Origin: Escherichia coli
GTDB lineage: Bacteria > Pseudomonadota > Gammaproteobacteria > Enterobacterales > Enterobacteriaceae
DNA: 64,000 nt
Strand: one strand, 5' to 3'
Assembly: GCF_024700885.2 (NCBI RefSeq)
Contig: NZ_CP117016.1
Position 1 is the first letter of the stretch. The number at the start of each line of letters is the position of its first letter. Under the pieces are notes generated by a model. The model was not told the origin of the DNA and searched no databases. It worked only from the letters and a program-made list of their open reading frames with translations. Shown here piece after piece: positions 15,299 through 62,894 of this stretch. A program made the translations under genes and the position numbers.

Positions 15299-16032
15299 TT
15301 ACGGCCTCTTTTCAGTATCAGTTCACTCACCCACGGACGGCGTTTTTCCATCAGCAAAATCAAATTACGCATCCGCATCAGCGTCAGCGTGGCAGACAGC
15401 AGCAGGAAGCCAAAAATCGACCAGCGCAGCGGCGAACGCATCGCCGGATCGATACTTTGCTGCATCCGCGTTGATCCCTGATGCAGGGTGTTCCACCACT
15501 CCACGGAGTAATGAATAATCGGCAGATTCACCACGCCAATCAGCACCAGAATACCTGCCGCACGGCCCGCCAGACGCCGGTCGTCGAAGGCGTGCCACAG
15601 GGCAATTACACCAACATACAGAAACAGCAGCACCAGTTCAGAAGTCAGGCGTGCGTCCCATACCCACCAGGTGCCCCACATCGGTTTTCCCCATGCAGAG
15701 CCGGTAACCAGGGCAATAAAGGTAAACACGGCACCAATGGGGGCCATCGCCGCCACCGCCAGGTTGGCCATTTTCATCTGCCAGACAAGGCCAATAAACG
15801 CCGCCACCGCCATTGATGCATAAATGCCCATCGACCAGATCGCCGCAGGCACATGCAGGTAGATAATGCGGTAGCTATTTCCCTGTTGATAATCAGCCGG
15901 AGCAAAGCCGAATCCCCAGATCCAGCCGACGGTAAGCACGACCACACTGGCAATTGCCAGCCACGGTATAAACCAGCCACAGATTTGATACAGCCGTGGT
16001 GGGATCGCCAGTTGATGCAGTGTTTTCCACAT
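15295..16032 (-). CDS. ccmC: Heme exporter protein CcmC (245 aa)
   Basis: Start at MWKTLHQLAIPP (complement ATG 16030-16032); WGxxWxWD Trp-rich motif. Confidence 0.9.
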   Translation of the reverse strand: MWKTLHQLAIPPRLYQICGWFIPWLAIASVVVLTVGWIWGFGFAPADYQQGNSYRIIYLHVPAAIWSMGIYASMAVAAFIGLVWQMKMANLAVAAMAPIGAVFTFIALVTGSAWGKPMWGTWWVWDARLTSELVLLFLYVGVIALWHAFDDRRLAGRAAGILVLIGVVNLPIIHYSVEWWNTLHQGSTRMQQSIDPAMRSPLRWSIFGFLLLSATLTLMRMRNLILLMEKRRPWVSELILKRGRK

Positions 16033-30790: not shown

Positions 30791-32231
<1,441 letters not shown>

Positions 32232-32324
32232 GCTATCATCATTAACTTTATTTATTACCGTCATTCATTTCTGAATGTCTGTTTACCCCTATTTCAACCG
32301 GATGCCTCGCATCCGGTTTTTTTT
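32232..32324 (+). ncRNA. micF: MicF antisense sRNA
   Basis: Recognised sequence gctatcatcattaactttatttattaccgtcattcatttctgaatgtctgtttacccctatttcaaccggatgcctcgcatccggtttttttt including the terminator hairpin and U-run. Confidence 0.9.
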
Positions 32325-35979: not shown

Positions 35980-36060
35980 CTGTAGGCCAGATAAGACGCG
36001 TCAGCGTCGCATCTGGCATTTGCACTGAATGCCAGATGCGGCGTAAACGCCTTATCCGTC
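35980..36060. repeat. REP element pair between rcsB and rcsC
   Basis: tgtaggccagataagacgcgtcagcgtcgcatctggcat ... gccagatgcggcgtaaacgccttatccgtcctac inverted REPs. Confidence 0.7.
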
Positions 36061-38910
36061 CTACGAATCCCGCGATTTCCTGACCCTCTCGGCATATACC
36101 GTTAGCGTCTGTTTTATCACATCCAGCGTTACCGGCTTCGACAGGCAGCTGTCCATACCAGACTCCAGACACCGCTGCTTCTCTTCAGCCAACGCATTAG
36201 CAGTTACTCCGATTACCGGCAACGTCAGTCCCAACTGACGAATGCGTTGCGTCAAGCGGTAACCATCCATATTTGGCATGTTGACGTCGCTAAGCACGAT
36301 ATCAATATGATTCTTGCTAAGTACATTAAGCGCATCGACGCCATCATTCGCGGTTTTACATTGATAGCCCAACGATCCCAACTGATCTGCCAGAAGACGC
36401 CGGTTAATCGGATGATCATCCACAACCAGAATCATCATATCGTCGTTATCGCTGACCGCTTTGTCCGTCGACGGCAGAGCGTTAGCAGGATCATCGCTCT
36501 CCATCTCGATCAAATAAATACGCGCCAACAATGCCGGTAGCTCATGCGGGGCAGCCACACTGTGTACCCACTCCCCTGGCGCTTTCTCCAGCGGAATACC
36601 AATATGGCGACGACAGAAGGTCACTACCGCTCTACCCTGCCATTTTTTGCTCACTACCTCGTCAGTGATTAACACATCTTCGGGAGTCGGTTCCTGCCCT
36701 TCGTATGTTGTAACGACGATGCCGCTGCGCTGCAAACTGGTTTCCAGGAACTGACAGAGCGACGCATTGCGGACCGCCAGCCAGCAGCGTTTACCACTCA
36801 ACCCTTCCACGCCTTTTTTCTGCGGGTACTGAGCGCCGTACAACGGAATACGCACGGTAAACTGGCTGCCCATTCCCGGTTCTGAATCTACCGAGATGTC
36901 GCCGTCCATCATGCTGATCAGTTTTTCACAAATCGCCAGCCCCAGACCGGTCCCCTGGAAGTTACGCTGTACGCCCGTTCCGACCTGGAAGAAGGGATCA
37001 AACAAGCGCACCACTTCTTTCGCCGGAATCCCCACTCCGGTATCGCGAACGCGGATAGAGAGATAATCGCCATCAGCGCGAACATGCAAAACTATACAGC
37101 CGGTATCGGTGAATTTTATGGCGTTACTCAACAGGTTGGAGATGACCTGCTGTAAACGCATCGGGTCGCCATTTAAGGCCACTGGCACATCCGGTTCAAT
37201 AAAGCAGTACAAGCCTAGCTGCTTGCGTACCACCAGCGGTAAATAGTTGGCGGTGATGTGGTTCATCACTTCACGCGGTGAAAACTCACGCGGTTCGATC
37301 TTCAACTGTTCTGATTCAATTTTCGAGAAATCGAGAATATCGCTGATAATTTTCAACAACAGGCTGGAAGAGTTATTCATTGCCGTCACCAGCCGATCGA
37401 CGCCTTTCGGTAACTCTTTGGTTTGCAACAGATCCAGGTTACCGATAATGCCATACAGCGGCGTTCGCAGCTCATGACTGACGGTGGCAAGGAACATCGA
37501 TTTTGACTGGCTCGCCTGTTCCGCTGCTTGTGCCATCTCCTGCAACGACTCTTCCATCTTCACGCGCGAAGAAACATCCACCAGCACACAAATGGCCACG
37601 TTTTCATTACGATAGCGCGAATGGACGAAGCTGATTTGCAGATTGGTATTGTTGCTGGTCAGGACATCAACAAAATTGACCTGCTGCCCACAGATAATTT
37701 GTGTCAGCCGTTGGCGATCCTCATGCGTAAGCATATTGAGATAGGTATGCGCCAGTTCGTTACTTAAAATATTGACGCCATCAGCGGTACGCAAAATGCA
37801 GATACCCACTGGCGCGGAGGCGACAATCTTGCGATTAAACTGCTCATGTTCTTCCAGTCGCAGGGCGTCGCTTTCCGCCGGAATGAAAATACGTCGCTCG
37901 TACATCCGCGCGAGAGTAAACAATGCAGCTCCGGCAAGCACATTCAGCAAAATTGCGTTAAGGATCAACATGCGAATGCGTTCCAGCACCTTATCAACCG
38001 GCACCGAATACACGATGCTTAGCGATGAGGGTGGCAGATTTTTCTTCAGCACCAGCTCCCGGAACCCTTCCGTATAGCCAAACCAGGAGCGTTCCTGCAT
38101 CCAGCGAGGATCGCCCTTAATTTTGCTTTCTGGTCCGGTAAGCGAAATCAGGGTATGACCATTTTCATCAAGAATGGTAACCCCCATCGGCAACGTACCA
38201 GGTAAGAAAAAGTTCTCCATCCGGATGGTCTGCTCGACACCCAAAAGCGCCTGCAACCGGTTCGCCAGATAAACTGGCGTCAACGCGTAAAAATACCCGA
38301 CGCCAGGGCGCGGACCTTCGCTGATCCAGTAGAGGTTACTGCCGCTATCGTCTTGTGGTGCATTTCGATATTTATTGATGCGTTCATGCAAAGCTTTCAA
38401 CGCGGTATCGCGTTCCACTGGCATATCACGCAGACCGAAATTGGCCATGCAAAGGTTATCGCTGCCGATTAAAAATACCCGGTTGAGATCGTAAGCCGCA
38501 GAGAAATTATCGCGCCAGTAGCGCATAAACCACACCAATGACTCCAGAGAGCCTCGCCAGGTGTTACTCATTGCGGAACAATCGGAGTCGGCAAACAGCG
38601 GTTCAAACGCAGGCACATCCGCCTGCGTTTCTCGTCCACGCGGGGAAAGCACACCGTTTTCTGCCGATAAGCGATTTTCAGCTATGTACTTCAGCTCTTT
38701 CATCACATCAGAGGTACGTTGAATAAAGCGCTGAGCCTGATCGGAACTCAGATTAAATTCCTGACGAATTTCCGATTCTCGCTGATGTAACGCATTCACG
38801 ATGTAAAAAACGGATGAAAAAGCAATCAACAGCCAGAGCACTAACGCCAATGCTCGGAACATGTAGCGCGAGGCTTTCAGGGTTGTACGAAAAGAAGCAA
38901 GGTATTTCAA
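36061..38910 (-). CDS. rcsC: Hybrid sensor histidine kinase RcsC (949 aa)
   Basis: TM segments, HisKA H-box (SHELRTPL), HATPase, C-terminal receiver domain. Confidence 0.93.
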   Translation of the reverse strand: MKYLASFRTTLKASRYMFRALALVLWLLIAFSSVFYIVNALHQRESEIRQEFNLSSDQAQRFIQRTSDVMKELKYIAENRLSAENGVLSPRGRETQADVPAFEPLFADSDCSAMSNTWRGSLESLVWFMRYWRDNFSAAYDLNRVFLIGSDNLCMANFGLRDMPVERDTALKALHERINKYRNAPQDDSGSNLYWISEGPRPGVGYFYALTPVYLANRLQALLGVEQTIRMENFFLPGTLPMGVTILDENGHTLISLTGPESKIKGDPRWMQERSWFGYTEGFRELVLKKNLPPSSLSIVYSVPVDKVLERIRMLILNAILLNVLAGAALFTLARMYERRIFIPAESDALRLEEHEQFNRKIVASAPVGICILRTADGVNILSNELAHTYLNMLTHEDRQRLTQIICGQQVNFVDVLTSNNTNLQISFVHSRYRNENVAICVLVDVSSRVKMEESLQEMAQAAEQASQSKSMFLATVSHELRTPLYGIIGNLDLLQTKELPKGVDRLVTAMNNSSSLLLKIISDILDFSKIESEQLKIEPREFSPREVMNHITANYLPLVVRKQLGLYCFIEPDVPVALNGDPMRLQQVISNLLSNAIKFTDTGCIVLHVRADGDYLSIRVRDTGVGIPAKEVVRLFDPFFQVGTGVQRNFQGTGLGLAICEKLISMMDGDISVDSEPGMGSQFTVRIPLYGAQYPQKKGVEGLSGKRCWLAVRNASLCQFLETSLQRSGIVVTTYEGQEPTPEDVLITDEVVSKKWQGRAVVTFCRRHIGIPLEKAPGEWVHSVAAPHELPALLARIYLIEMESDDPANALPSTDKAVSDNDDMMILVVDDHPINRRLLADQLGSLGYQCKTANDGVDALNVLSKNHIDIVLSDVNMPNMDGYRLTQRIRQLGLTLPVIGVTANALAEEKQRCLESGMDSCLSKPVTLDVIKQTLTVYAERVRKSRDS

Positions 38911-45142: not shown

Positions 45143-46327
45143 ATGAAAAATTGTGTCATCGTCAGTGCGGTACGTACTGCTATCGGTAGTTTTAACGGTT
45201 CACTCGCTTCCACCAGCGCCATCGACCTGGGGGCGACAGTAATTAAAGCCGCCATTGAACGTGCAAAAATCGATTCACTACACATTGATGAAGTGATTAT
45301 GGGTAACGTGTTGCAAGCCGGGTTGGGGCAAAATCCGGCACGTCAGGCACTGTTAAAAAGCGGGCTGGCAGAAACGGTGTGCGGATTCACGGTCAATAAA
45401 GTGTGTGGTTCGGGTCTTAAAAGTGTGGCGCTTGCCGCCCAGGCAATTCAGGCAGGTCAGGCGCAAAGCATTGTGGCGGGGGGTATGGAAAATATGAGTT
45501 TAGCGCCCTACTTACTCGATGCAAAAGCACGCTCTGGTTATCGTCTTGGAGACGGACAGGTTTATGACGTAATCCTGCGCGATGGTCTGATGTGCGCCAC
45601 CCATGGTTATCATATGGGGATTACCGCCGAGAACGTGGCCAAAGAGTACGGAATTACCCGAGAAATGCAGGATGAACTGGCGCTACATTCACAGCGTAAA
45701 GCGGCAGCCGCAATTGAGTCCGGTGCTTTTACAGCCGAAATCGTCCCGGTAAATGTTGTCACTCGGAAGAAAACCTTCGTCTTCAGTCAAGACGAATTCC
45801 CGAAAGCGGATTCTACGACTGAAGCGTTAGGCGCATTGCGCCCGGCCTTCGATAAAGCAGGAACAGTCACCGCCGGGAACGCGTCTGGTATTAACGACGG
45901 TGCTGCCGCTCTGGTGATTATGGAAGAATCTGCGGCGCTGGCAGCAGGCCTTACCCCCCTGGCTCGCATTAAAAGTTATGCCAGCGGTGGCGTGCCCCCC
46001 GCATTGATGGGTATGGGGCCAGTACCTGCCACGCAAAAAGCGTTACAACTGGCGGGGCTGCAACTGGCGGATATTGATCTCATTGAGGCTAATGAAGCAT
46101 TTGCTGCACAGTTCCTTGCCGTTGGGAAAACCCTGGGCTTTGATTCTGAGAAAGTGAATGTCAACGGCGGGGCCATCGCGCTCGGGCATCCTATCGGTGC
46201 CAGTGGTGCTCGTATTCTGGTCACACTATTACATGCCATGCAGGCACGCGATAAAACGCTGGGGCTGGCAACACTGTGCATTGGTGGCGGCCAGGGAATT
46301 GCGATGGTGATTGAACGGTTGAATTAA
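45143..46327 (+). CDS. atoB: Acetyl-CoA acetyltransferase (thiolase II) AtoB (394 aa)
   Basis: Thiolase motifs (VNKVCGSG active Cys, C-terminal [12 protein letters not shown]). Confidence 0.93.
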
Positions 46328-46407
46328 CAAATCAGAACCACTCGCATGGCGGGTGGTTATCTGTTTCAGCCACGATGCGCCAGAAACAGACTAAAGTCAG
46401 AAAAGTA

Positions 46408-46431
46408 AAGGGCCGAATTTTCGGCCCTTTT
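46408..46431. terminator. Bidirectional rho-independent terminator between convergent atoB and gyrA
   Basis: AAAGGGCCGA-attt-TCGGCCCTTT hairpin flanked by A/T runs on both sides. Confidence 0.85.
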
Positions 46432-46438
46432 AACTTGA

Positions 46439-49075
46439 TTACTCGTCAGCGTCGTCTGCGACATCATCGTCGCTTTCCACTTCCGGAGCGATTTCATCGT
46501 CCCCTTCCGCGGCACTGCCATCGATGGTATCCAGATCTTCCTCGTCAACCGGTTCAGCAACACGTTGCAGACCCACTACGTTTTCATCTTCCGCAGTACG
46601 GATGAGGATCACGCCCTGGGTGTTACGACCTACGATGCTGATTTCCGAAACGCGAGTACGTACCAGCGTACCGGCATCAGTGATCATCATGATCTGGTCG
46701 CAGTCATCTACCTGCACCGCGCCAACCACTAAACCGTTACGTTCGGTAACCTTGATGGAGATAACCCCTTTCGTCGCACGCGACTTAGTCGGGTATTCCG
46801 CCACTGCGGTACGTTTACCATAACCGTTCTGCGTTGCGGTGAGGATTGCGCCATCGCCACGAGGCACGATCAGAGAGACGACTTTATCGCCTTCACCTAA
46901 GCGAATACCGCGAACACCGGTGGTGTTGCAGCCCATCGCACGGACAGAAGACTCTTTAAAGCGCACCACTTTACCTTCGGCGGAGAACAGCATTACTTCA
47001 TCTTCGCCGCTGGTCAGGTCAACGCCGATCAGCTCATCGCCTTCAACCAGTTTGATCGCCACTTTACCGGCGGTACGCAGACGGTTGAATTCGGTGAGGA
47101 CGGTTTTCTTAACAGTACCGTTAGCGGTCGCCATGAAGACTTTCACGCCTTCTTCAAACTCGGTCACCGGCAGGATCGCGGTGATACGTTCGTCCTGCTC
47201 CAGCGGCAGCAGGTTGACAATCGGACGACCGCGCGCGCCACGAGTGGCTTCCGGCAACTGATAGACTTTCATCGAATAGACGCGACCACGGCTGGAGAAG
47301 CACAGAATATGGTCGTGGGTGTTCGCCACCAGCAGTCGGTCAATAAAGTCTTCTTCTTTAATACGTGCGGCAGATTTGCCTTTCCCGCCACGACGCTGCG
47401 CTTCGTATTCAGAAAGCGGCTGATACTTCACGTAGCCCTGGTGAGAGAGCGTCACAACCACATCTTCCTGAGTGATCAGATCTTCCAGGTTGATGTCTGC
47501 GCTGTTGGCGGTGATTTCAGTGCGACGTTTGTCACCGAACTGTTCACGAACCAGTTCCAGCTCTTCGCGGATCACTTCCATCAGACGATCGGCACTGCCA
47601 AGAATACGCAGCAGTTCTGCGATCTGATCCAGCAGCTCTTTATATTCGTCGAGCAGTTTTTCGTGCTCAAGGCCGGTCAGTTTCTGCAAACGCAGATCCA
47701 GAATCGCCTGGGCTTGCTGTTCGGTCAGGTAGTACAGACCGTCACGCACGCCGAACTCTGGCTCCAGCCATTCCGGACGCGCAGCATCATCGCCCGCACG
47801 TTCGAGCATGGCGGCAACGTTGCCCAACTGCCACGGATTAGCAACCAGCGCAGTTTTCGCTTCTGCAGGCGTCGGCGCATGACGGATCAGTTCGATGATC
47901 GGGTCGATGTTCGCCAGCGCCACGGCTAATGCTTCAAGGATATGAGCACGATCGCGAGCTTTACGCAGTTCGAAAATAGTACGACGGGTCACCACTTCAC
48001 GGCGGTGACGAACAAACGCCGCGATGATGTCTTTCAGGTTCATGATCTTCGGCTGACCATGGTGCAATGCCACCATGTTGATACCGAAAGAAACCTGCAA
48101 CTGGGTCTGGGAGTAGAGGTTGTTAAGCACAACTTCACCGACCGCATCGCGTTTCACTTCAATCACGATGCGCATACCGTCTTTGTCAGACTCGTCACGC
48201 AGCGCGCTGATGCCTTCCACGCGTTTTTCTTTTACCAGTTCCGCAATCTTCTCGATCAGGCGCGCTTTGTTCACCTGATACGGAATTTCGTGGACGATAA
48301 TGGTTTCACGTCCGGTTTTGGCGTCAACTTCCACTTCAGCACGGGCGCGGATATATACCTTGCCGCGACCGGTACGGTAAGCTTCTTCAATACCGCGACG
48401 ACCATTAATGATTGCCGCCGTCGGGAAGTCCGGCCCAGGAATGTGTTCCATCAGCCCTTCAATGCTGATGTCTTCATCATCGATATACGCCAGACAACCG
48501 TTGATGACTTCCGTCAGGTTGTGCGGCGGGATGTTGGTTGCCATACCTACGGCGATACCGGAAGAACCGTTCACCAGCAGGTTAGGAATTTTGGTTGGCA
48601 TGACGTCGGGAATTTTTTCCGTGCCGTCATAGTTATCAACGAAATCGACCGTCTCTTTTTCGAGATCGGCCATCAGTTCATGGGCAATTTTCGCCAGACG
48701 GATTTCCGTATAACGCATTGCCGCCGCAGAGTCGCCGTCGATGGAACCGAAGTTACCCTGACCGTCTACCAGCATGTAACGCAGCGAGAATGGCTGCGCC
48801 ATACGGACGATCGTGTCATAAACCGCCAAGTCACCATGGGGATGGTATTTACCGATTACGTCACCAACGACACGGGCAGATTTTTTATAGGCTTTGTTCC
48901 AGTCATTGCCTAGTACGTTCATGGCGTAAAGTACGCGACGGTGTACCGGCTTCAGGCCATCTCGGACATCTGGCAGCGCACGGCCAACAATGACCGACAT
49001 CGCATAATCCAGATAGGAGCTCTTCAGCTCTTCCTCAATGTTGACCGGTGTAATTTCTCTCGCAAGGTCGCTCAT
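46439..49075 (-). CDS. gyrA: DNA gyrase subunit A (878 aa as encoded), carrying S83L
   Basis: [19 protein letters not shown]-terminus, active-site region, acidic C-terminal tail; codon 83 reads TTG (Leu), codon 87 GAC (Asp). Confidence 0.95.
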
Positions 49076-61823: not shown

Positions 61824-62894
61824 ATGCCAAATACATCTATTCACTTATCTCGCTGTAATATTTTACAAAATAATAAATTGCAACCAGCAGAAATTTACAA
61901 AGAATCACAACAAACCGCGAAACTTGAGTTTTTTTGCGATGAGTTTCTAAAAATATCTCAAAGTAGATACGGGTTATCAACTTCAGCAGACAGCATAGCT
62001 AATTTATTGGCTTTTTTCACGAAAGCCTCAGATGCAATTGATAGTATCAAGACCCAAAAAATTGACGTTCACAGTTATGGTTTCGTACCAATAAGACATT
62101 TTGTCGAACATGTCATAACGTATAAAAATGAATTTGCAGCGGATTATGAACCCTATACCCTTACCTTTACCCGAGGTGAAAACAACGAAGGTATTTTGAG
62201 TGTCGAAAGCAAAGAAGGGTTTATTTCACAAAGAACAATAAACTTAAATGAATATGAAACTGCAATTAACATCATCAATGAACATGTTATAAAAGAAAAT
62301 ATCCACAACACGGTCCAGTCACCGACAGAAAAAGACATTTCAAAAATAAACAGCTCTGATAAACCTTATAAAACCAGCAGTGAGGAAAGTATTAAAAGTC
62401 AACTTTACAGCGATCAAAAAAAATATACAGACCTGCTACTACATTCTGAGAAAAATACAGAATGGTACAAATACGCATCCTCCGTGGAACGCTATGATAA
62501 ATTCAAGAATTCTTCTAAGGAAATTAAAAATACCTACAAGCAAATTGTACAAGCGCAGAAAAAATTGAACCAAATGAAATACATCAATAAATTAAGTGGT
62601 GAGCTTATCGATATCGCCGACAAAAAGTTAGCACCATTAATAAATGATAGTTTCAGCTATACACGAGATTTCTTTGCTTACTCAAAACAGGAAAATAACA
62701 TCTTCACGTTTGATAATTCTAAGTTTGAAGATCCAAAGGAAAAAAAAGGTTTAATGGTACAACACAGCAATGGACAACTGGTTATTACTGGTGAATATTA
62801 TCCTGAAGGTGTGCAAATAGCATTCACTCAAGAACAATATAATAAATTAATAAGATACATTAATATTTTCTTTACTTTCCCGAAATGCGAATAA
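61824..62894 (+). CDS. Hypothetical protein (356 aa) in an AT-rich islet; no recognisable domain, no signal peptide or TM segment
   Basis: Long ORF (track 61788-62894); preferred start ATG 61824 with AAGGA SD 8 nt upstream; ~30% GC and Lys/Asn/Ser/Glu-rich composition unlike the flanking core genes. Confidence 0.65.
   Translation: MPNTSIHLSRCNILQNNKLQPAEIYKESQQTAKLEFFCDEFLKISQSRYGLSTSADSIANLLAFFTKASDAIDSIKTQKIDVHSYGFVPIRHFVEHVITYKNEFAADYEPYTLTFTRGENNEGILSVESKEGFISQRTINLNEYETAINIINEHVIKENIHNTVQSPTEKDISKINSSDKPYKTSSEESIKSQLYSDQKKYTDLLLHSEKNTEWYKYASSVERYDKFKNSSKEIKNTYKQIVQAQKKLNQMKYINKLSGELIDIADKKLAPLINDSFSYTRDFFAYSKQENNIFTFDNSKFEDPKEKKGLMVQHSNGQLVITGEYYPEGVQIAFTQEQYNKLIRYINIFFTFPKCE

Follow-up and report, generated by a model that had tools for sequence, protein, structure and literature searches.

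Does the GyrA protein of this Escherichia coli strain owe its three additional residues to a small indel in the acidic C-terminal tail, or to an event reaching beyond gyrA? The question was raised by a 64,000-nt stretch of E. coli DNA, the whole of which is called the window herein, whose first-pass annotation had described an 878-aa GyrA, longer than a reference of 875 aa, and had regarded the ending as an allelic variant of the small-indel kind. Both lengths, as well as the C-terminal end that it gave, were borne out: the ORF listing contained one ORF of 878 aa at 46439..49075 on the minus strand, TTA at 46439-46441 being the reverse complement of the TAA stop, and E. coli GyrA has 875 residues in PDB 6rks as well as in NEB Turbo, a K-12 derivative whose gyrA (2,628 nt) ends in ...IAPEVDVDDEPEEE.

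The gyrA gene of the window and its product

The gyrA CDS (46439..49075, minus strand) was a single ORF, 100% identical to the annotated gyrA (WP_143118939.1) of strain MLI114, the genome of which differs from the window by 1 base in 64,000; with the length read directly from such a CDS, there is no room for a chance finding. In a phmmer search against PDB, residues 1-872 of the product aligned to E. coli GyrA (6rks) with E=0, the protein matching E. coli GyrA structures over its full length at E=0, and the Pfam families PF00521 and PF03989 were recorded for its 878-aa sister allele (P0122). The catalytic Tyr122 (AAMRYTE) and the GyrA box (QRRGGKG), the mark separating gyrase from topoisomerase IV that was used herein to assign GyrA membership, were both present in the translation, and the Tyr122/GyrA-box region was identical to that of K-12. 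Full-length similarity, Tyr122, and the GyrA box together identify the product, at the level of sequence, as DNA gyrase subunit A. Negative supercoiling activity with GyrB would be expected of it from its 99% identity to K-12 GyrA and from its gene being the only gyrA in the complete genomes of viable isolates.

Compared with K-12 GyrA (875 aa; P0AES4, PDB 6rks), residues 1-866 were the same except for S83L and D678E, and the entire C-terminal block past residue 866 was different. The allele is already catalogued in RefSeq: WP_143118939.1 (878 aa) is the window's own protein without any difference, and WP_001281243.1 (strain N3; 'MULTISPECIES ... [Escherichia]', 878 aa) departs from the window only by L83S and E678D, the exact sequences occurring on 85 and 104 contigs, respectively, of a large collection. 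The tail is a natural allelic variant, as had been supposed, and the window GyrA as an object is an ordinary, catalogued allele with a standard enterobacterial tail; for annotation and resistance typing, its length of 878 aa is not an error.

The substitution at codon 83 (48827..48829, minus strand), TTG (Leu) for TCG (Ser), lies in the quinolone-resistance-determining region and is unlinked to the tail, at a distance of 2.3 kb. Asp87 was unchanged, and it is through S83L that the protein belongs to the mutants with a substituted Ser83 and/or Asp87; this was read from the sequence alone, parC lying outside the window. Leu83 was confirmed for the window/MLI114 and for one O166:H15 genome, and the remaining 878-aa alleles of E. 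coli (N3 and 19KM1831) have Ser83.

Breakpoints and the gyrA-atoB spacer

Alignment of the C-terminus with that of K-12 GyrA, the check that the first-pass annotation had proposed, revealed that neither the tails nor the lengths were identical. As judged by BLAST against the K-12 locus, homology ended inside codon 867 (window 46476) and restarted 3 nt past the atoB stop codon (46330), with window 46476-46700 matching K-12 locus positions 15496-15720 and window 46200-46330 matching 5841-5972. Hence 145 bp in the window, namely 37 nt of gyrA end and 108 nt of intergenic DNA including two terminator hairpins, stand for 9,523 bp in K-12, which consist of yfaA-yfaT-yfaS-yfaQ-yfaP together with the 28 nt that end gyrA in K-12; there, gyrA is followed by a spacer of 148 nt and then by yfaA, and yfaS is a pseudogene. 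The allele-specific gyrA end (46439..46475, minus strand), running from the third base of codon 867 to the stop codon, had no counterpart in K-12-type E. coli, and the 108 nt of intergenic DNA (46331..46438) were orthologous to the spacer of Citrobacter and of a divergent Escherichia locus (L004). In all non-variant E. coli genomes among the matches listed, the alignment of the gyrA query ended at base 2600 (window 46476), and both breakpoints, 46330 and 46476, recurred against MS14384, the closest yfa-positive strain among the matches listed. Even when a 9-nt gap was forced, sequence identity dropped from ~98% to roughly 67% (manual count on a mafft alignment), and among the nine terminal residues that overlap, seven differed between the window and K-12. 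The non-homology went on past the coding sequence, taking in stop codon, terminator, and all of the intergenic DNA, and coincided with the missing 9.5-kb yfaATSQP operon.

Within the spacer, a terminator scan located the intrinsic-terminator hairpin of gyrA, AAAGGGCCGAAAATTCGGCCCTTT followed by ACTTTTCT, at 46407..46430 on the minus strand (RNAfold, -18.4 kcal/mol), and a terminator-like hairpin for the convergent atoB at 46336..46358 on the plus strand (RNAfold, -17.3 kcal/mol), which was also present in L004. The ORF at 45143..46327 (plus strand), annotated in MLI114 as atoB (acetyl-CoA acetyltransferase, WP_000786525.1), is directly convergent on gyrA, and its product was 98.7% identical to K-12 AtoB. 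An arm matching that of the gyrA hairpin (CGGCCCTT or a close variant) was found no more than 90 nt past the gyrA stop codon in 53 of the 80 enterobacterial species representatives listed, and Salmonella arizonae was among the species with the conserved GGGCCG hairpin at this place. The spacer could be aligned between the window, Citrobacter species, and L004, although ~65 nt of it were absent in Citrobacter and present in L004; scanning it against Rfam gave no RNA family. The window thus has the ancestral-type arrangement, a GGGCCGG-stem terminator directly after gyrA and no yfa operon, and not the K-12-type arrangement, in which the end ...PEVDVDDEPEEE is followed by the AAAAGGGAG hairpin and then by yfaA.

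Polarity, distribution and origin of the ending

The 80 species representatives were the matches listed in a GTDB scan, among which S. enterica subsp. enterica and, within Escherichia, E. coli proper, E. albertii, E. fergusonii, and E. marmotae did not figure; the E. albertii loci were recovered indirectly, via YfaA. The last 12 residues of the window GyrA were identical to those of Salmonella arizonae, its last 10 residues occurred in 17 of the 80 representatives among the matches listed, and the C-terminal pattern E-S/T-DDD-V/A-ADDA-D/E-E in 41 of them, whereas the K-12 ending was found in none of the 80 and yfa genes beside gyrA at none of the 80 loci. The acidic tail of the window (residues 841-878; 46442..46555, minus strand) comprised 38 aa with 20 Asp/Glu and no Lys/Arg by counting, and has the features of the ancestral tail, that is, the end pattern, 38 residues past pinwheel 6, ~20 acidic residues, and no basic ones. 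Adjacency of gyrA and atoB with an alignable spacer was observed in Citrobacter species, Atlantibacter, and L004, and adjacency as such is common to the window, Citrobacter, and two other Escherichia lineages; a second Escherichia group (L095-L097, L101) may be E. fergusonii. The gyrA of E. albertii encodes 875 aa with a K-12-type tail, the locus agreeing with that of K-12 also in the DNA past the gene and in the presence of the yfa operon, and the K-12 tail was always found together with this operon. In other genera, the yfa cassette occupied unrelated sites, behind the tRNA genes clustered downstream of pgsA (L090/L091) or after cysH in Entomohabitans (L092/L093). These comparisons indicate that the gyrA 3' end of the window is the ancestral form and the K-12 tail the derived one. 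The description of the window protein as longer than the reference therefore holds for the numbers, 878 versus 875 aa, but its polarity has to be turned round.

Among 5,426 complete E. coli genomes, 26 had the ancestral tail variant in place of the K-12 ending, the window's being one of them and 24 of the 5,426 belonging to the clade of the window's gyrA allele, and yfaA was present in 5,397; atoB adjoined gyrA in all 12 inspected contexts of 878-aa alleles. In E. coli, the ancestral form is rare, and its backgrounds comprise several haplotypes. Strains N3 and 19KM1831 as well as L004 share the last 37 nt of the window's gyrA without a difference, and altogether the same ending was observed on E. 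coli haplotypes 0.6-2.7% apart and in two other Escherichia lineages. A literature search on yfaS/yfaA/yfaT/yfaQ with gyrA retrieved nothing relevant, and we found no paper commenting on the allele.

Breakpoints, polarity, and the distribution of the ancestral allele being matters of observation, they very probably reflect an ancestral enterobacterial gyrA 3' end beside which the yfa operon is not inserted and which would retain an enterobacterial-type tail function. The ancestral end consists of the 12-residue tail block, the GGGCCG-stem terminator, and the directly adjacent convergent atoB, without the five-gene yfaA-yfaT-yfaS-yfaQ-yfaP (alpha-2-macroglobulin) operon, which about 99.5% of E. 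coli, plus E. albertii, carry at the place where gyrA meets atoB (or rcsC). The yfa rearrangement would have swapped the last 37 nt of gyrA, the terminator, and the spacer (145 bp) for new DNA, the first 28 nt of which would encode the K-12 ending ...DVDDEPEEE*. Because the rearrangement replaced the gyrA end, the three-residue difference in length would be the edge of a 9.5-kb presence/absence polymorphism and not a slippage indel. The small indel that the first-pass annotation had in mind is accordingly not supported: nine K-12 residues are exchanged for 12 others, and the non-homology runs past the stop codon.

An in-frame slippage indel in the repetitive GAY/GAR codons of a K-12-type tail would suit an acidic, low-complexity sequence; genuine slippage variants exist, an E. 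coli GyrA of 883 aa carries a tandem duplication in a K-12-type tail, and mafft can force both endings into an alignment with a 9-nt gap. It deserves virtually no credence, however, given the mismatch at seven of the nine overlapping residues, an ending identical to that of other genera, and 9.5 kb missing at the very point where stop codon context, terminator, and 108-nt spacer all lack homology; this non-homology downstream of the stop codon refutes slippage in the gyrA tail. A recent deletion of the yfa operon that fused a truncated gyrA to fortuitous DNA, and thereby gave a new tail, would agree with the absence of the operon and with a breakpoint inside gyrA, and the loss would be cheap since yfaS is already a pseudogene in K-12. 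Yet no deletion can generate 145 bp that K-12-type genomes lack, and Citrobacter, L004, and Salmonella have orthologues of this segment in their own gyrA end, terminator, and spacer, which contradicts a deletion, as does the recurrence of the 37-nt ending on several E. coli haplotypes and in the two other Escherichia lineages, so that we give it next to no weight. Recent import of the gyrA 3' end from Salmonella or Citrobacter, perhaps with S83L, would account for the 12 last residues shared with Salmonella arizonae; the gene does carry S83L, and gyrA resistance alleles can spread by recombination. Nevertheless, gyrA was E. coli-like up to the breakpoint (its last 300 nt being 98% identical to K-12, 95% to L004, and 91% to E. 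albertii), atoB shared 99.7% identity with its counterpart in an E. coli that has the yfa operon, and the ~65 nt of spacer shared with L004 were not in Citrobacter; S83L lies 2.3 kb off, and the remaining 878-aa alleles of E. coli have wild-type Ser83. No species representative among the 80 matches listed had the 145-bp segment at >98% identity. Such an import appears highly improbable.

Two further points concern the history of the two endings under the ancestral reading of the window. K-12's last 28 nt are acidic-coding and force-align to the ancestral tail at roughly 67% with a 9-nt gap, and the K-12 terminator resembles a second hairpin family, that of Citrobacter youngae-type loci (local score of 39 versus a maximum of 33 in 200 shuffles); because of this force-alignment and resemblance, it may be that the K-12 end comes not from island DNA but from a gyrA that is foreign or has diverged strongly. 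The C. youngae-type terminator was the sole above-shuffle signal, and a suggestive one, for the K-12 segment (28 nt plus spacer) over the 80 species loci listed, and a BLAST search with a word size of 7 detected no origin of the 28 nt and 148-nt spacer upstream of yfaA at L090/L091 or L092/L093, the only match to the segment being E. albertii. Since E. albertii is derived and two Escherichia lineages are ancestral, one clean insertion with purely vertical descent does not fit unless old polymorphism or inter-lineage recombination is admitted. The ancestral allele may have been lost and then regained by homologous recombination from an E. coli/Escherichia strain, with replacement of the yfa operon, or else retained in unbroken vertical descent. 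For regain speak the close yfa-positive relatives of the 24-genome clade (99.1% in gyrA and 99.66% on the atoB side) and the other ancestral-allele haplotypes, whose flanks are 1.4-2.7% off and whose 37-nt ending is yet identical, the pattern expected if a short segment moves between backgrounds. On the other hand, no SNP excess marking a tract was seen beside either breakpoint relative to the closest yfa-positive strain listed, and the same pattern could arise if recombination homogenized yfa-positive flanks around an old polymorphism. We regard regain as quite plausible, at slightly less than an even chance.

The acidic tail and comparison with known systems

The region beyond pinwheel 6 has 35 aa with 19 acidic residues in E. 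coli and 38 aa with 20 acidic residues in Salmonella (PMC6463007), and Rovinskiy et al. (2019; PMC6463007) described the 38-residue tail of Salmonella enterica as a 'rheostat' of the supercoiling set point. That the acidic tail modulates DNA wrapping and supercoiling, as the first-pass annotation had remarked, is known (PMC7038939, PMC6463007, PMC11626157), all three papers citing Tretter and Berger (2012), who studied the K-12 tail. We infer that the window tail would act as any enterobacterial GyrA acidic tail, namely as a disordered segment competing with DNA for the C-terminal beta-pinwheel, by which wrapping by free GyrA would be repressed and processivity and the supercoiling set point would be set. 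Its first 26 residues are E. coli-type, and its last 12 residues, length, and charge are Salmonella-type. With an E. coli-type proximal tail, the sequence as such does not predict Salmonella-like behaviour (lower processivity/set point, putrescine-sensitive activation); should the distal block matter, the window gyrase would be expected to lean toward it.

The published data (PMC6463007, PMC7598504) are from whole-tail swaps, which changed growth and supercoiling (PMC6463007). The 35 E. coli residues, within which DVDDEPEEE falls, are reported to restore health to E. coli made sick by Salmonella GyrA and to set the higher supercoiling level of E. coli. Duprey and Groisman (PMC7598504) dispute the GyrA C-terminus as the cause of the E. 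coli/Salmonella difference in supercoiling. The combined reading that DVDDEPEEE is a by-product of the yfa rearrangement and that operon-less E. coli, the window's S83L clade included, have a gyrase Salmonella-like in distal tail, length, and charge with a measurably different set point, processivity, or polyamine response seems to us unlikely; if true, yfa-less strains would be natural chimeras splitting the 'rheostat' into proximal and distal halves. With its Salmonella length and charge (38 aa, 20 acidic), the window tail offers a natural test of the 'rheostat' model. E. coli strains in which the proximal part of the tail is E. coli-type and the distal part Salmonella-type occur naturally, the 24-genome clade among them, and would allow a cheap test of which tail part acts. 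The K-12 875-aa tail, used in nearly all gyrase biochemistry, is the derived form, having very probably arisen with the 9.5-kb operon rearrangement and being common only to E. coli and E. albertii among the lineages examined, and comparisons of the "E. coli tail" with the "Salmonella tail" are in fact comparisons of derived with ancestral.

In Enterobacteriaceae, the same spot, from the gyrA terminator to rcsC, holds cassettes that vary by lineage, including the ato operon and a sorbitol-type PTS cassette (Citrobacter youngae, C. amalonaticus, and Enterobacter sp.). The ato and PTS insertions keep the gyrA coding end intact, the tails still being DDDxADDAEE, and among post-gyrA insertions the yfa-linked rearrangement of Escherichia alone cuts into the gyrA coding sequence.

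The GyrA of Salmonella enterica (878 aa) matched the window in total length, tail length (38 aa), and acidic count (20). That of subsp. arizonae, which is the Salmonella sequence compared herein rather than S. Typhimurium LT2, shared the 12 last residues and a homologous GGGCCGG terminator hairpin past the stop codon, but differed in its proximal tail, in which seven of the 26 residues are substituted and the window equals K-12 throughout; moreover, rcsC lies downstream of gyrA in Salmonella and atoB in the window, and the rest of the window protein is E. coli GyrA. K-12 GyrA, in turn, has the same domain organization and an identical 26-residue proximal tail, but ends in the nine residues DVDDEPEEE with 19 acidic residues in its tail, where the window has 12 other residues and 20 acidic ones, and its gene is followed by a terminator unlike that of the window and by the yfaATSQP operon, which the window lacks.

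The GyrA ending and the gyrA-atoB junction

The gyrA ORF of the window (46439..49075, minus strand) encodes a protein of 878 aa, which aligned over its full length with E. coli GyrA structures (E = 0) and matched gyrA as annotated in E. coli MLI114 (WP_143118939.1) at 100% identity, the genome of that strain differing from the window by 1 base in 64,000. The K-12-type GyrA, represented by PDB 6rks and the gyrA of the K-12 derivative NEB Turbo, consists of 875 aa and ends in ...IAPEVDVDDEPEEE. The 878-aa length and the C-terminal ending described in the first-pass annotation were thus borne out, and the K-12 length of 875 aa that it gives proved correct. Comparison with the K-12 C-terminus further revealed that neither the reference tail nor its length was that of the window, the two proteins differing at S83L, D678E and all residues past 866.

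The same annotation had regarded the tail as a small-indel variant, a view that did not hold, as nine K-12 residues are swapped for twelve in the window. The two genes share their codons up to ...CCG GAA GTG GA, from which the window continues as A AGC GAC GAT GAT GTC GCA GAC GAC GCT GAC GAG TAA and K-12 as C GTT GAC GAC GAG CCA GAA GAA GAA TAA. When the two endings were forced into alignment with a 9-nt gap, their identity was about two-thirds by manual count, as compared with ~98% just upstream of the divergence point, and the window DNA past the stop codon was unrelated to that of K-12; an indel was therefore rejected. A true small-indel variant of the envisaged type was observed outside the window in P0127, an 883-aa E. 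coli GyrA on 12 contigs, which is K-12-type with an 8-residue in-frame tandem duplication in the acidic tail.

K-12 carries yfaP, yfaQ, yfaS, yfaT and yfaA, in that order, between atoB and gyrA. The window has the two genes side by side, with atoB (45143-46327, plus strand) directly convergent with gyrA. BLAST matched window 46200-46330 and 46476-46700 to 5841-5972 and 15496-15720 of the NEB Turbo locus L003, respectively, and these coordinates indicated that a 145-bp segment of the window (46331-46475) occupies the position of 9,523 bp of K-12 DNA. The former comprises a 108 nt spacer and the final 37 nt of gyrA, and the latter all five yfa genes with the spacers belonging to them, plus the final 28 nt of K-12 gyrA. 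Terminator-like hairpins for gyrA (46430-46407, -18.4 kcal/mol) and atoB (46336-46358, -17.3 kcal/mol) were located inside the 145 bp, and such a terminator exchange could influence gyrA 3'-end formation. The gyrA-side breakpoint was constant at query base 2600 among the non-variant E. coli genomes listed, and MS14384, the closest yfa-positive relative among the matches listed, gave both breakpoints as K-12 did. The yfaS gene, a member of the alpha-2-macroglobulin family, is intact in MS14384 (L102 17609-22123), and the NEB Turbo annotation (L003:8473-12987) lists it as a pseudogene containing an internal stop.

Polarity and distribution of the two arrangements

A scan of GTDB species representatives provided at least 80 Enterobacteriaceae/Erwiniaceae loci. 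The exact 10-residue ending of the window occurred in 17 of the 80 listed, including Salmonella enterica subsp. arizonae, where the match to the window covers the last 12 GyrA residues; the pattern DDD[VAIT][AS][DE]D[AST][DE]E fitted 41 of the 80, and the K-12 ending none. A GGGCCGG-type hairpin arm homologous to the window hairpin was present within 90 nt past the gyrA stop in 53 of these loci, and yfa genes adjoined gyrA in none. Moreover, gyrA was directly followed by atoB in several Citrobacter species, Atlantibacter and L004, a divergent Escherichia labelled E. coli but 10-12% divergent, and their tail, hairpin and spacer were alignable to those of the window. From the outgroup tails, the hairpin, the gyrA-atoB adjacency and the absence of adjoining yfa genes, the arrangement in the window is therefore ancestral and that in K-12 derived.

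The derived ending is shared by E. albertii, whose GyrA has 875 aa and terminates in DVDDEPEEE as in K-12, with 92% identity to K-12 over the final ~60 nt of gyrA and the downstream spacer. Its gene order is gyrA, yfaA-T-S-Q-P and then rcsC, the yfa operon and rcsC being separated by a single 96-aa ORF (GCA_008326665.1, L089:18511-21698). The ato operon, and with it the entire atoSC-atoDAEB region, is missing from E. albertii. Since atoSC-atoDAEB is missing beside yfa there, variation of the ato block at this position is independent of that of the yfa block.

The tail and spacer of the window were found in 26 of 5,426 complete E. coli genomes (24 at 100% over the 221-nt query, strain N3 at 99.1% and strain 19KM1831 at 98.6%), and yfaA was present in 5,397. 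The 24 exact matches grouped closely in one clade, with gyrA identity of at least 99.9%, which includes O166:H15 strains as well as isolates from humans, chickens, dogs and water; N3 and 19KM1831 diverged from the window by 2-2.7% across 12 kb. In a large protein collection, the exact window GyrA was on 85 contigs, the N3-type GyrA (WP_001281243.1, 'MULTISPECIES ... [Escherichia]') on 104, and the K-12 GyrA on at least 1,000. All 8 N3-type contexts retrieved showed gyrA-atoB adjacency, 4 being E. coli-like haplotypes 0.6-2.7% apart and 4 lying ~10.4% away from E. coli at this locus. The latter (L095, L096, L097 and L101; CP057104.1, JAPXDH010000001.1, CP042945.1 and CP077242.1), from genomes of 4.5-4.7 Mb, encode an 878-aa GyrA identical to that of N3 and probably represent another Escherichia species. 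Every examined case of the ancestral allele lacked the yfa operon, so that the linkage is complete. By these genome counts, haplotypes and contexts, the allele is thus old, rare in E. coli and carried on several genetic backgrounds.

Origin of the allele and the insertion spot past gyrA

The window flanks were ordinary E. coli DNA up to both breakpoints. Over the last 300 nt of the shared gyrA, identity was 98% with K-12, 95% with L004 and 91% with E. albertii. Relative to the closest yfa-positive strain among the matches listed, it reached 99.1% on the side of gyrA and 99.66% on that of atoB, and SNPs did not accumulate at the junctions. Because of these E. coli-type flanks and the smooth junctions, a recent import from another genus was ruled out; a simple yfa deletion was also ruled out, since a deletion is unable to recreate the 145 bp. 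Long-term retention of the ancestral allele and its re-acquisition by homologous recombination within Escherichia appeared about equally likely.

More distantly related YfaA proteins (71% and 63% identity) belong to the same five-gene cassette at unrelated chromosomal sites, indicating that the cassette is mobile over evolutionary time; the 28 terminal nt of K-12 gyrA had no match upstream of the cassette at these other sites. The K-12 gyrA terminator was similar to a second hairpin family, AAAAGGGAGGC...GCCTCCCTTTT, a distinct hairpin that forms the gyrA-side boundary of sorbitol-type PTS insertions past gyrA in Citrobacter youngae, C. amalonaticus and some Enterobacter. Judging from these sequences, the site just past gyrA has evidently taken up insertions repeatedly, and among the insertions there only the Escherichia event reached the gyrA coding sequence. 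The PTS cassette, 4.4-5.5 kb between gyrA and rcsC/atoB, was observed in C. youngae (L032:2112-6635) and in L012, L014, L023 and L058; its gene content, read from the L032 ORFs alone, comprised a sorbitol-type PTS (EII-GUT, IIA, EIIBC), a GFO/IDH/MocA oxidoreductase and an RpiR regulator.

Known features of the window and tail function

Two RefSeq accessions already cover the ancestral-tail GyrA, whose tail is of the standard enterobacterial type. The feature itself is therefore known, and the 878-aa form is a well-explained allele with a clear evolutionary history. A limited open-access text search found no paper linking the K-12 ending to the yfa rearrangement or describing E. coli that keeps the ancestral ending. 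Elsewhere in the window, Rfam matches above the gathering score were MicF adjoining ompC (32231-32324, plus), naRNA4 (35985-36061, minus), a tRNA annotated as tRNA-Pro in MLI114 (7299-7372, plus) and the L25 ribosomal-protein leader (3558-3583, plus), all expected for this E. coli region. In the matching MLI114 genome, the RefSeq annotation places a frameshifted 'hypothetical protein' pseudogene between glpQ and a LysR-family regulator (~61824-62894; L084 1107-2177 in MLI114 coordinates).

S83L, the classic first-step quinolone-resistance substitution, results from TCG to TTG at codon 83 (48827-48829, minus strand), with Asp87 unchanged. Leu83 was present in both GyrA checked of the 24-genome clade (window/MLI114 and one O166:H15 genome), and the 878-aa GyrA of N3 and 19KM1831 have Ser83; S83L is thus independent of the tail.

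The GyrA tail is disordered and invisible in cryo-EM maps (PMC11626157). Rovinskiy et al. reported that Salmonella GyrA in E. coli lengthened doubling from 39 to 60 min, and that the last 35 E. coli residues alone on Salmonella GyrA gave 37 min and brought supercoiling close to normal. In their proposed 'rheostat', DNA release is favoured by the Salmonella tail, which at 38 aa with 20 acidic residues is longer and more acidic than the E. coli tail of 35 aa with 19 (PMC6463007). Duprey and Groisman implicated the GyrA C-terminus in polyamine activation and doubted it as the cause of the species difference (PMC7598504). The window tail, also of 38 aa with 20 acidic residues, is a natural half-swap of the two: its first 26 residues, which hold all seven positions at which the E. 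coli and Salmonella tails differ in their alignable part, are identical to those of K-12 GyrA, whereas its last 12 are of the Salmonella type.
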